From positions 744,001 through 808,000 of the forward strand of contig BROI01000010.1 of NCBI GenBank assembly GCA_027923505.1: DNA of 64,000 nt, given 5' to 3'. This DNA is from Mayamaea pseudoterrestris. Taxonomy: Eukaryota. Positions 2,525 to 58,973 of the stretch are shown here, piece after piece (position 1 is the first letter of the stretch; every line of letters begins with the position of its first letter). The notes below the pieces were generated by a model. That model was given only the letters and a program-made list of their open reading frames with translations, did not search any database and was not told the DNA's origin. The translations under genes and the position numbers were made by a program.

Positions 2525-2608
2525 TGTCTCAGACCGGAGTCGAACCGATGCCCAACGAATTGGACTAGCACCTGAAGCTAGCGCCTTAGACCACTCGGCC
2601 ACTGAGAC
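2525..2608 (-). tRNA. tRNA-Leu(CAG)
   Basis: Reverse complement has acceptor stem GTCTCAG/CTGAGAC, D arm TGGCCGAGTGGTCTAAGGC, anticodon arm CTAGC-TTCAGGT-GCTAG, a long variable arm and T arm ATCGG-TTCGACT-CCGGT. Confidence 0.95.
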
Positions 2609-22747: not shown

Positions 22748-23974
22748 ATGGCATGGGCTAGCAAGCTGGAAAGAAAACTCTTATCGTTAACAGAAGCATC
22801 GAGCCCCGAATCAATTGCCACCGTCGCAAAATGGATTTGCTTCAATCGAAAACAAGCGGCAAGCTTTTGTCAAGTTCTTAGCGGGACGCTTGCTGCATCA
22901 GATCGTCAAGTTCTCCTCCTTGAATTGATTAGTTTAGTCTTGCTGAACGACAAGGAAAGTAGTGCATGGGATCGAGGCGCAGATCTTCGTCGCGTCATGG
23001 GAGAGACCGTCCTCCTACCAAACATTGACAAGCTGAACGCTTCTTCGCGCGATAAGCTCCTCGGATTGACCGAAATTTGGGACGAGGCAAATGTCTTTGG
23101 AGGCCCTACAATTATTCATCAGATTCGCAAGCTCCAGCAATCAGGATCTTTGTCTGTTTTAGAGACGGGTGCCAGGGAACTTGACACCGAGACGAAACCT
23201 GCGGCTGCAGAATCTGCACATGATTTGCCCAAAAAACGACCATCGACTCCTACAAAGCTTTCCCGTGACGATGAGTATGATGCATTTATAACTCAAGAAG
23301 ACGATTTTGATTTGGCTCCACTGATGAAGAAACCTCGTGCGACGGCGTCGGCTTTAATGACTGCTGCCATAGACACTGTTCCCTACGATTTTGAATCCAC
23401 CGGCATTTCTTTTGTCAAAACGGAGCCATATCAATTACTAGAATCTTGCGGACAAGTTGCCAACCTTCAAATTGCTCGCGACATCCGAAATGACAGCGCC
23501 ATACAGCTTAATAGCCTCTTTACGGCTCTCCCTGAGGATGTGCGACGGTCCTGCGCCGAAGCTGCGGAAACTGACGGCGCATATGCGTTGGCGGACAATG
23601 ACACGGCTCGGGATTACAGCATTCGAATGAATCAGTCTCTGATTGATATGGACATGAATGAGCAACTTTTGAATTTATATCAGCTTCGAAAACTTATTGA
23701 GCAGCAGCAAGAAGCGAGGCAAAACGCGCGCAAACTTTTGCTGCAGTCACGCTGCCAGTTTGGGTCGGACGAAGCCGCCGCTGCCTTTTACACTGCTAAT
23801 CGAGGACAAGGCGAACTCGCGAGTCGGCGTCAAATTATGTTGGATGCCATGGAGTTAGAAGGTTGTGGTCTGGAGGAAAACGAACAGGCCGATGTCCAGT
23901 TAGATACCGCTAACCAAGACGATCTGGAACCACTGATTTGGTACAAGCCCGATGCATTTGTGGACGCAAGTTGA
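22748..23974 (+). CDS. CID (Pol II CTD-interacting) domain protein, RPRD/Rtt103-like
   Basis: The N-terminus LERKLLSLTEASSPESIATVAKWICFNRK...IWDEANVFG is typical of CID domains, followed by a coiled-coil region. Confidence 0.7.
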   Translation: MAWASKLERKLLSLTEASSPESIATVAKWICFNRKQAASFCQVLSGTLAASDRQVLLLELISLVLLNDKESSAWDRGADLRRVMGETVLLPNIDKLNASSRDKLLGLTEIWDEANVFGGPTIIHQIRKLQQSGSLSVLETGARELDTETKPAAAESAHDLPKKRPSTPTKLSRDDEYDAFITQEDDFDLAPLMKKPRATASALMTAAIDTVPYDFESTGISFVKTEPYQLLESCGQVANLQIARDIRNDSAIQLNSLFTALPEDVRRSCAEAAETDGAYALADNDTARDYSIRMNQSLIDMDMNEQLLNLYQLRKLIEQQQEARQNARKLLLQSRCQFGSDEAAAAFYTANRGQGELASRRQIMLDAMELEGCGLEENEQADVQLDTANQDDLEPLIWYKPDAFVDAS

Positions 23975-24017
23975 AGTTGGTGGCAGATTAGTCGGTACGT
24001 ACAAAAAAGTCCACGCC

Positions 24018-24119
24018 AATATTCCTGATGACGAACTTAGCTTTATAATCACAATCATTCATGCGTGTCAACTGACTGCTGGTGCAGCTTGATCTCAACA
24101 AAGCGAACTGAGGAATATT
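24018..24119 (+). ncRNA. Box C/D snoRNA, SNORD10/mgU6-77-like
   Basis: Terminal stem AATATTCC/GGAATATT. Box C TGATGA 24026-24031; D' CTGA 24072-24075; CTGC-TGGT-GCAG stem; C'-like TGATCT; box D CTGA 24108-24111. The guide CATTCATGCGTGTCA is complementary to conserved LSU rRNA UGACGCGCAUGAAUG and to U6 UGACACGCA. Confidence 0.88.
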
Positions 24120-24277
24120 TGTTGTTCTTTAGAGATGCTGAGAAGTGAATCTTCATAATCTCAAATGTATTGTTGTTCTACATTGATTCAGTGCACGAAC
24201 TGTTCTACAGTTCCACTAATTGCTCCGCCCTGCGTTGCCATCAGGTCAGTAATATTTACAATAAACGTGCTAGTGAG

Positions 24278-24386
24278 AGAGCCGTTGATGACGAAACATC
24301 ATAGACCTGTTCTTAACGCCACGGGGCACCGAAAGGTGTCCACCGGCCATGTGTCGACAAAATGATGCACCACCAGCTGAGGCTTT
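24278..24386 (+). ncRNA. Double-guide box C/D snoRNA (U33/snR55-like D guide + U25/snR56-like D' guide)
   Basis: Stem AGAGCC/GGCTTT. Box C TGATGA 24286-24291; box D CTGA 24377-24380. D guide ATGCACCACCA pairs with 18S UGGUGGUGCAU. Internal guide CATCATAGACCTGTT pairs with 18S AACAGGUCUGUGAUG, before a degenerate D' (CTTA). Confidence 0.88.
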
Positions 24387-24670
24387 TGCATCGATGTTTG
24401 CTGTCTATGCCTTTTTGCGAAAGAGACTTACACTATGAGTTTTATTTGTTTTCAAAGCTCCCAATCGCAAGTTCCGCCTCTAGCCAACACCACAGCGCGC
24501 TCTATGGGCGAACTCTGGATAATGTTTGCGACAGAGTCGTTTACATCTAACGTTTTATATATTATTTATTAGCGAGAACATAATTATTGATCGTTTTCGT
24601 CAGACTCTGCAACAGCATTAGCGCCGTAAACTTTAGTCCAGCATTGCGACAGATGCGCGATATAGGTGGG

Positions 24671-30266: not shown

Positions 30267-30340
30267 GCTCGTGTAGCTCAGTTGGTTAGAGCGTGGGTCT
30301 AATAAACCCAAGGTCGCCGGTTCGATCCCGGTCTCGAGTA
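30267..30340 (+). tRNA. tRNA-Ile(AAT)
   Basis: GCTCGTG-TAGCTCAGTTGGTTAGAGC; anticodon arm TGGGT-CTAATAA-ACCCA; T arm GCCGG-TTCGATC-CCGGT; 3' CTCGAGTA. Confidence 0.95.
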
Positions 30341-39367: not shown

Positions 39368-39449
39368 CGACATGAGCAGGATTCGAACCTACGAGGGAAA
39401 ATCCCAACAGATTTCGAGTCTGTCGCCTTAACCGCTCGGCCACCATGTC
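39368..39449 (-). tRNA. tRNA-Ser(CGA)
   Basis: Reverse complement GACATGG-TGGCCGAGCGGTTAAGGCG; anticodon arm ACAGA-CTCGAAA-TCTGT; long variable arm; GTAGG-TTCGAAT-CCTGC; TCATGTCG. Confidence 0.95.
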
Positions 39450-57743: not shown

Positions 57744-58973
57744 TTATCCAGTGTAGCGAAGCAAGAGTCCGTTGCTGCCTAGCGCCCAACCCATGTTGCC
57801 ATACTCGGGGAAGAACTTGACGTTGTACAAGTTGCCTGGAATATCATTGGCGCTGGAATCAAATTTGAACTTTTTGCCTCCGTCAAAGCTTACGAACATG
57901 ACATTGGATCCACCAACGGCCCACACCTCATTATCCGCTCGCCAAGCAAGGTCAGTAATACCGTATCCACCCGTTTTAATGTCGGCTTCCACAAAGTCGA
58001 ACGCATCCTGCGTCAAATCAGGCGTTTCCTTGCTTATAAACACCTTACCGCCGTTCAAAGTCATCCAGAGCCCCTTGTTGATCTTGCCTTCGACGAAACC
58101 CATATTTTGGATCCGACGAGGAGTGCCACGATTGTGTGGAATCCAGAAATCCTGGCCTGGTTCCCACGTAAGGAAAAAGTTGCCGCGACTTGATACGGCC
58201 AGGTACGCACCCTTGTCATCGCGCACTTGGTTGATGATGCTTCCGGTAAAGTATGAAGCTCCACTGACACCACTACTACTGATACGATTGAGTGTAGCGT
58301 CAATAGTTTCCTTTACTTGTGCCTTCCAGTTGCGTCCCGCATTTTCGGTCACGTATACAGCTCCGCTGCTAGTGGTCATTTCCGCCTTGCTTGGACCAAG
58401 TGCGAAGATGGAGGATGGCTCACCTGGAAGCTTGGGTGAAAGGGGAATGCGCTCCCATGACTTGCCGCCATCAGCCGTGTGCAGCATGAGTGTTGGCTTG
58501 CCGAGCACCCATCCTTCATTGCCGGTGAAGGAAACAATCTGGAATCTATAAGTGATCTCTTCCTCCGCGTCAAGGTTAGAAAATGAACGAGCTTCCCATG
58601 TCTTTCCTCCGTCCGTTGTCTCGGCAAATGAGCCACGAGCACCAACAATGTATCCATGCGTGGGGCTGTTAAAATCAATGTCGTAAACAGTGTCTTCAAA
58701 CGGCAATGAAACTTGCGTCCATCGCTTCTCTGGCGCAGCTTCAACTGAAGCTGGAAGACCTCCTGTCGCTGTCGCAATGGATACTGCCGCTGCAGCAGTT
58801 GCTGAGTTGCCAATGAAGGCTCTCCTGTCTTCGACTCCGTCGTTTCTTGACATGAGGAGTTTTGACGGCAAAATGCATGTTGATGTCTTGGATGCCGATG
58901 GAATAAGGTGTCTTGGCGCAAAGGCAGTCACGCTGCCGACTGCAAGAACAAAACAAGCGCTCCTCAGATTCAT
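57744..58973 (-). CDS. HCF136: Photosystem II assembly factor HCF136/Ycf48
   Basis: Tripartite targeting: signal peptide, VTA-FAP, DRRAF...VEA. BNR repeats T.DGGK.W; ISSSGVSGASYFTG; AVSSRGNFFLTWEPGQ..W.PHNR...RRIQNMG. Confidence 0.95.
   Translation of the reverse strand: MNLRSACFVLAVGSVTAFAPRHLIPSASKTSTCILPSKLLMSRNDGVEDRRAFIGNSATAAAAVSIATATGGLPASVEAAPEKRWTQVSLPFEDTVYDIDFNSPTHGYIVGARGSFAETTDGGKTWEARSFSNLDAEEEITYRFQIVSFTGNEGWVLGKPTLMLHTADGGKSWERIPLSPKLPGEPSSIFALGPSKAEMTTSSGAVYVTENAGRNWKAQVKETIDATLNRISSSGVSGASYFTGSIINQVRDDKGAYLAVSSRGNFFLTWEPGQDFWIPHNRGTPRRIQNMGFVEGKINKGLWMTLNGGKVFISKETPDLTQDAFDFVEADIKTGGYGITDLAWRADNEVWAVGGSNVMFVSFDGGKKFKFDSSANDIPGNLYNVKFFPEYGNMGWALGSNGLLLRYTG

Follow-up and report, generated by a model that had tools for sequence, protein, structure and literature searches.

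The diatom sequence analyzed here, a window of 64,000 nucleotides, very probably harbors a genuine box C/D snoRNA at positions 24018-24119 that guides the modification of a conserved LSU rRNA cytidine, and on balance we favor the view that the same guide serves U6 in the diatom as well. The latter judgment weighs the share of U6 genes that carry the matching 9-mer, the precedent of the human snoRNA and the existence of fused forms against the exception found in Ostreococcus tauri and the shortness of the U6 duplex.

In the mechanism that we propose, a cluster of two snoRNAs that closely follows a CID-domain gene in a pennate-type diatom would give rise to a box C/D snoRNA of ~102 nt, which would associate with fibrillarin, Nop56, Nop58 and Snu13 (core proteins expected from the class). 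The guide preceding the D' box would then direct 2'-O-methylation of the nucleotide opposite its fifth base. In the LSU, the predicted target is the cytidine of UGAC within the conserved stretch UGACGCGCAUGAAUG; it lies at the helix 71 base and corresponds to human 28S Cm3787. Most likely, the same guide would also methylate the U6 cytidine equivalent to human Cm77, as does vertebrate SNORD10/mgU6-77, since guide position 6 is a U and a perfect duplex of 9-10 bp can therefore form with the usual U6 UGACACGCA too. For the diatom itself, we infer expression, methylation and the usual U6 sequence.

Structure and genomic setting of the snoRNA

The original prediction had described a full C-D'-C'-D layout closed by an 8-bp terminal stem, and this was confirmed from the sequence (Table 1). 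The base before UGAUGA is a C and not the purine of the class consensus RUGAUGA; otherwise, the C and D boxes and the stem conform to the class, and internal D' and C' boxes are present together with a 15-nt guide that ends one base before D', within the class expectation of at least 10 nt and a spacer of one or two bases. We scanned both strands of the window for TGATGA...CTGA pairs closed by a stem, which returned one candidate with a stem of at least 8 bp and two with a stem of at least 7 bp, the second being the neighboring snoRNA of the cluster. By comparison, 100 Markov-simulated windows contained on average 0.07 and 0.23 such candidates, respectively. The terminal stem was present in both the MFE and the centroid folds. 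The overall fold energy was no better than that of shuffled sequences (z of -0.08), as is usual for C/D snoRNAs.

Table 1. Features of the 64-kb window and of three metagenome loci with a related guide
Feature	Position	Strand	Remarks
tRNA gene	2525-2608	-	by Rfam
CID-domain gene, upstream	22748..23974	+	Pfam CID, E 6.9e-10; stop codon 44 nt before the snoRNA; linkage conserved
GGTACGT, 5' splice site-like	23995-24001	+	between CID stop codon and first snoRNA
Whole snoRNA	24018-24119	+	~102 nt; boxes and terminal stem read from the sequence
Terminal stem, 5' strand, AATATTCC	24018..24025	+	pairs with 24112-24119, 8 Watson-Crick bp
C box TGATGA	24026..24031	+	preceding base C, hence CUGAUGA
D' guide CATTCATGCGTGTCA	24056..24070	+	15 nt, inside the block identical in L123
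Spacer A (24071) and D' box CTGA (24072-24075)	24071..24075	+	spacing as in SNORD10 consensus
D'-C' spacer CTGCTGGTGCAGCT	24076..24089	+	potential 4-bp hairpin CTGC/GCAG, read from the sequence
Degenerate C' box TGATCT	24090..24095	+	TGATCT in L123 and L100; TGATCG or TGATTA in other homologues
Second guide position CAACAAAGCGAA, 5' of D box	24096..24107	+	target search negative
D box CTGA	24108..24111	+	
Terminal stem, 3' strand, GGAATATT	24112..24119	+	partner of 24018-24025
Second box C/D snoRNA of the cluster	24277-24387	+	C box, D box, 7-bp stem including a G-U
LRR protein ORF	ends 24671	opposite strand	far side of the 696-nt gap
tRNA gene	30267-30340	+	by Rfam
tRNA gene	39368-39449	-	by Rfam
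C/D-like box pair with long G-U-rich stem	58223-58295	+	inside overlapping long ORFs
Putative double U6 guide, locus L165	295-398	+	metagenome
Putative double U6 guide, locus L166	233-342	-	metagenome
Putative double U6 guide, locus L110	194-283	-	metagenome

In L123 and L100, two metagenome loci with related snoRNAs, the stretch CAACAAAGCGAA ahead of the D box shows little conservation. Its best anchored match to the SSU, 5.8S and LSU of one eukaryote was just 9 bp with one G-U, in the SSU, and it gave no match to eight U6 loci; it is treated here as a putative orphan or non-guide. We infer, tentatively, a hairpin in the D'-C' spacer; L123 carries ATTA...TAAT at the equivalent place.

The snoRNA is located in a 696-nt gap that separates two convergent ORFs. 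The second snoRNA of the cluster lies ~160 nt from the first and is conserved in the metagenome loci L123 and L105, and it has no Rfam match. Its D guide, GCACCACCAG, forms 11 bp with GGUGGUGGUGC of the SSU, with D+5 on a U, and its D' guide, CATCATAGACCTGTT, which is followed by a degenerate D' box (CTTA; in L123 and L105 it reads CTGA), fits the SSU around AACAG.UCUGUGAUG with one mismatch, as judged with a single SSU. Between the stop codon of the CID gene and the first snoRNA, we noted the sequence GGTACGT, and L123 has GGTAGGT on the reverse strand ~18 nt after the stop codon, again before the snoRNA. Given their resemblance to 5' splice sites, an intron in the 3'-UTR of the CID gene may harbor both snoRNAs. 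The named relatives of the Dus protein encoded in the window are from pennate diatoms (Bacillariaceae sp., Cylindrotheca, Pseudo-nitzschia and Nitzschia; 61-64% identity), and the CID protein has a single named relative, from Thalassiosira profunda; a diatom as the host is thus supported.

Locus L123 is orthologous to the snoRNA cluster of the window and stems from a related organism. The end of the ORF upstream of its snoRNA shares 44% identity with the C terminus of the window CID protein (54 amino acids, E 1e-12), and both snoRNAs of the cluster follow this CID homologue in the same order as in the window. The block comprising the guide and the D' box, ATCATTCATGCGTGTCAACTGA, is identical at 22 of 22 positions and the C' box TGATCT is kept, whereas roughly half of the remaining positions of the first snoRNA are identical. 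In the terminal stem, ATCCT/AGGAT replaces AATATTCC/GGAATATT, which is a compensatory change; L123 thus has the conserved boxes and guide and the covarying stem that characterize the class. Six further stem sequences found in other lineages, including GTTAACC/GGTTAAC, TTGGCAATA/TGTTGCCAA, GTCAGAC/GTCTGAC, TGCTGTAT/ATACAGCA and AAATTTGC/GCAAATTT, are all complementary.

The stems were compared using a per-locus stem table and not the eight-sequence alignment A2, in which the C box is invariant apart from a 3-column shift of the window row introduced by MAFFT that misplaces the window C box. In the cross-locus null of this table, 5% of the pairs reached 8 bp, a figure that is inflated by related loci. 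A simple search found no convincing D box plus stem in L090, L092, L141, L168, L171 and L190; the D box of L171 is CCGA, as in O. tauri, which is outside the forms allowed in that search.

Pairing of the guide with LSU rRNA and U6

To define the LSU target, we turned to the Rfam consensus and to a single eukaryotic locus (L220; RF02543) from a contaminated MAG. The consensus reads agUGACGCGCAUGAAUGgAuUAAC, with the target stretch in upper case, and the locus reads the same. The Rfam U6 consensus reads GGAUGACACgca, in which the 'gca' part of the target is in lower case and hence less conserved. The LSU and U6 target strings that the original prediction had given are identical to these consensus sequences. 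Actual U6 genes were retrieved from genome contigs with an 18-nt probe published in the supplement of PMC4247016, which lies outside the target region. Among the 24 loci obtained, 17 had an intact U6 core (12 distinct sequences), 5 were not U6, 1 was truncated and 1 was a decayed copy. All 17 intact loci read TGACACGCA, and the 9-mer matching the guide was present in each of the 12 distinct sequences, which are from other eukaryotes.

Pairing was evaluated by a script that used D'+5 as its anchor; this position, five bases ahead of D', is G24067. With the LSU, both consensus and locus L220, the guide formed 15-16 bp, in agreement with the predicted 15-bp duplex with one G-U; the 16-bp run contains two G-U pairs, one at guide position 6 and a terminal one contributed by T24055. 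The 9 perfect base pairs predicted with U6 were recovered as an uninterrupted run of 9-10 bp with the Rfam consensus and in 8 of 8 loci tried, and they extend to all 12 distinct U6 genes retrieved. G24067 is guide position 5 and faced the C of UGAC in every target tried, LSU and U6 alike, exactly as had been proposed. The neighboring T24066, guide position 6, acts as a G-U/A-U switch, as it pairs with G in the LSU (UGACGCGCA) and with A in U6 (UGACACGCA); the claim that the G-U pair falls precisely where U6 and rRNA differ is therefore correct.

In the LSU, both in the Rfam consensus and in the eukaryotic locus L220, D'+5 coincides with the cytidine that corresponds to human 28S C3787, a correspondence that rests on the guide shared with SNORD10 and on the available text of PMC5027482. 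According to the same text, human 28S C3787 is fully methylated under guidance of snoRD10 with the same G-U, and its pairing partner at the foot of helix 71 is Gm3771. On U6, the D'+5 rule selects the counterpart of human C77 in the Rfam consensus and in all 12 distinct genes retrieved from other eukaryotes, whereas the U6 of O. tauri differs. Human U6 Cm77 is assigned to SNORD10/mgU6-77 in the accessible parts of PMC7960923 and PMC5855946. The vertebrate SNORD10 sites named by the original prediction (U6 C77 and 28S C3787) were thus found assigned in the sections of PMC7960923 and PMC5027482 available to us.

For diatom U6, the papers on CRISPR in diatoms give U6 promoter coordinates or a 3' primer, with no sequence over the target, and the P. 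tricornutum small-RNA paper gives, in its available parts, an 18-nt U6 probe that covers ACAGAGA-AGC only (PMC4247016). Literature matches to the 10-mer of the U6 target came mostly from papers with human primers. The text-readable supplements of PMC4247016 did not contain the strings of the window snoRNA. A scan of viral contigs gave no matches to the snoRNA guide or to the T. pseudonana U6 primer; the LSU/guide 15-mer occurred there at 85 loci, none of them rRNA, and the U6 probe at 6 loci, none of them U6. A MAG titled Hyphomicrobiales (G001) contains, on contigs C9 and C10 (L220, L228, L196 and L202), a full eukaryotic rDNA unit with SSU, 5.8S and LSU by Rfam, as well as at least five U6 genes, and is therefore contaminated with eukaryotic DNA. 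In five MAGs with contaminating eukaryotic U6 genes, there was no copy of the guide pattern.

Related guides in vertebrates, green algae and metagenomes

The snoRNA of the window is probably a homologue of SNORD10/mgU6-77, judging from shared sequence features. Vertebrate SNORD10 (Rfam RF01290) belongs to the same box C/D class and has the guide core CAUGCGUGUCA, a one-base spacer and a CUGA box; the guide of the Rfam consensus, CAUGCGUGUCAuCUGA, equals CAUGCGUGUCAACUGA of the window with the same spacing. The two also share their predicted targets, U6 Cm77 and the LSU cytidine at the foot of helix 71 (Cm3787 in human), and the G-U towards rRNA at guide position 6. However, membership of the Rfam family was not borne out: the covariance model gave 17.6 bits versus a cut-off of 37 (E 0.49 in 1.5 kb), and at the gathering threshold a search of the whole window returned no match for the snoRNA. 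At a relaxed threshold, SNORD10 was the best Rfam match of the region, in an alignment that mis-registers the boxes. The two RNAs also differ in length (102 nt versus a model of 139 positions), in the distance from the C box to the CATGCG core (28 nt in the window, or 24 nt to the 15-nt guide, versus 4 nt in the model), in LSU complementarity (15-16 bp versus ~11 from the consensus) and in setting, as the window snoRNA belongs to a cluster that follows a CID gene and is either intergenic or part of a 3'-UTR.

Outside animals, the described RNA that comes closest is Ot-CDsno85 of the green alga O. tauri (Bousquet et al. 2020, PMC7671301). According to the available parts of that article, it has the same guide, ..CAATCATTCATGCGTGTCA, followed by 1 nt and CTGA, and it is similar in being short (81 nt) and clustered and in having a TGAT-type C' box after a short spacer, whereas its D box is CCGA and its C box TGACGA. 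It is described there as intergenic, uncapped and expressed at ~50 TPM. Its only published target is 25S.C2147, and in the same parts of the article it is grouped as specific to Mamiellophyceae, with no human, yeast or plant orthologue listed. The O. tauri U6 given in PMC7671301 reads GGATGACACTCAAC, one base off the usual UGACACGCA (UGACACUCA), and this mismatch leaves only 6 contiguous pairs with Ot-CDsno85, of which position 6 is still a U.

The same guide is present in many unrelated eukaryotic metagenome contigs. Our scan, for which the pattern was TGATGA, a gap of 2-32 and CATGCGYGTCANCTGA, returned 110 loci, with T at guide position 6 in 66 and C in 44. Credible snoRNA forms comprise, apart from the window and L123, those of L100 (4 loci) and L105; an 88-nt form on many contigs (L087 and others); L171, a close variant of the 88-nt form that is by eye ~91% identical to Ot-CDsno85; L090 and L168; a 74-nt AT-rich form (L107 and others); a 135-165-nt form (L095 and others); L141 and L142; and L145, which at 89.5 bits was the sole one of 20 representatives to reach the Rfam SNORD10 threshold. 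A final credible form is an AT-rich family with C at position 6 (L089, L091, L108, L109, L124, L128, L140, L144, L151, L155, L161, L173, L175, L176, L185, L189), in which the guide is perfect for the LSU and mismatched for U6. Rfam catalogues SNORD10 essentially for vertebrates, and the scan shows that, as far as can be judged from guide sequences, guides of this type are far more widespread than catalogued.

Many matches with C and some with T were set aside because they were coding-like or had no D box and stem. These include L093, L117, L125 and L130 (one family with both T and C), L099, L133 and L195, a 7-copy family represented by L118, and L102, L106, L111, L116, L122, L137, L138, L147, L149, L154, L177, L180, L181, L186, L188 and L194. 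In the AT-rich family with C at position 6, we also noted a second element, ..TCATCCATTCAT.., before the D box. It is complementary to the adjacent LSU sequence AUGAAUGGAU, out of methylation register, and may provide extra LSU pairing.

Three distinct metagenome snoRNAs (L110, L165 and L166) combine a D' guide of the SNORD10 type with a D guide that forms 11-13 bp with AGAGAAGAUUAGC of U6 and is aimed at the final A of ACAGAGA, which in human is the Am47 site according to the accessible parts of PMC5855946. The D' guide is of the T type and keeps the LSU-specific extension ATTCA. As the D guide is aimed at U6, the RNA is tied to U6 in those lineages. Each of the three clearly looks like a single RNA with two U6 guides, the D' guide of which would still fit the LSU, and the fusion appears to be the best indirect support for a dual use of the guide outside animals. 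The partner is of the kind known from mgU6-47/SNORD7, which likewise methylates U6 (PMC5855946, available text); in contrast, the window snoRNA has no such second guide, and no target for its D-side sequence turned up among the RNAs tested. By Rfam, a SNORD24 neighbor accompanies L165, L166 and L168.

One or two targets of the guide

The most serious alternative is that the RNA is a real box C/D snoRNA for the LSU cytidine only, the U6 complementarity being an inherited or incidental by-product of the tolerated G-U that is not used in the diatom. Its main support comes from O. tauri, since Ot-CDsno85 has a U at position 6 but is assigned, in the available text of PMC7671301, to 25S.C2147 alone, and the U6 of this alga carries a mismatch inside the duplex. 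Because Ot-CDsno85 keeps the U although the U6 is mismatched, a wobble U alone is no proof of U6 targeting. In the same direction point the lengths of the duplexes, 15-16 bp with the LSU and a much shorter 9-10 bp with U6, and the conservation of the LSU-specific extension ATCATT between the window and L123. Furthermore, the AT-rich family with C at position 6, being perfect for the LSU and mismatched for U6, indicates that LSU-only versions exist.

Data from Arabidopsis have also been considered in this respect. The RiboMeth-seq lists in the accessible portion of PMC8053127 contain no Nm between 25S C2294 and A2322, and they do not include the U6 C at the corresponding place, an equivalence that is based on our own offset count. 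As neither site figures in these tables, the two sites are apparently absent together in Arabidopsis. In the few organisms with data, the LSU and U6 sites thus seem to be present or absent together, as far as the consulted parts of the sources go.

Several observations speak against an exclusive use for the LSU. Each of the 12 distinct U6 sequences carries the matching 9-mer, both sites are served by the human snoRNA, which has this wobble as well (PMC7960923 and PMC5027482, available sections), and the fused L110, L165 and L166 link the guide to U6. In addition, T prevails over C at position 6 among the 76 distinct sequences of the scan (45 T versus 31 C) and among those with a terminal stem of at least 5 (20 T versus 15 C), and the C forms belong, by eye, mostly to one family. 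We consider a guide for the LSU alone a reading of real but limited probability, and retain the dual use of the guide as the favored one.

The possibility that the locus is not a functional gene, that is, a chance arrangement of boxes or a decayed snoRNA copy, is very slight. It would account for the absence of an Rfam match at the gathering threshold, the degenerate C' box and the orphan second guide. However, 0.07 candidates were expected per window and one was seen, with a second snoRNA 160 nt away; the guide block is identical at 22 of 22 positions in a relative whose neighboring protein end is just 44% identical; the terminal stem shows a compensatory change; and the layout is common to an expressed, published algal snoRNA (~50 TPM; PMC7671301, available parts). 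Slighter still is the chance of a scaRNA-type guide for U6 only with an incidental rRNA match, as might be suggested by the perfect U6 duplex and by an LSU duplex that needs a G-U adjoining the target pair, because the guide continues to match the LSU for six bases past the U6 duplex (CATTCA, along with ATC across a one-base bulge), and conservation of these extra bases extends from the window to L123, L087, L090, L168 and the O. tauri type.

The original prediction had further concluded that dual targeting is retained in a stramenopile and is likely ancient. The wide occurrence of the guide fits an old origin; the wobble U by itself, as the case of O. tauri illustrates, does not prove that U6 is targeted. 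Tentatively, at slightly less than even confidence, we put forward the possibility that a single guide for the ribosome (base of LSU helix 71) and the spliceosome (3' region of U6) is no peculiarity of vertebrates, that it was in place before diatoms, green algae and animals diverged, and that individual lineages modified it later. If the guide were indeed ancient, some lineages would have fused it with a U6-A47 guide into a double U6 guide (L110, L165 and L166), others would have hardened it to the LSU only by a C at position 6, and O. tauri would have kept the wobble as a relic after its U6 had changed.

Among the best-ranked full-text literature matches, there was no catalogue of box C/D snoRNAs from diatoms or stramenopiles, which does not prove that none exists. 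The locus described here offers an anchored diatom example with a testable pair of targets, and the wide spread of the guide opens the way to asking directly whether rRNA and U6 methylation have been linked through one guide since early eukaryotes. This spread and the fusion to a U6-A47 guide in some lineages should interest snoRNA specialists to a moderate degree; for an ordinary housekeeping RNA such as this, the practical value is modest.

Elsewhere in the window, we noted a C/D-like box pair with a long G-U-rich stem inside overlapping long ORFs, which is probably a chance arrangement. Three tRNA genes were identified by Rfam, two of which have a long variable arm.
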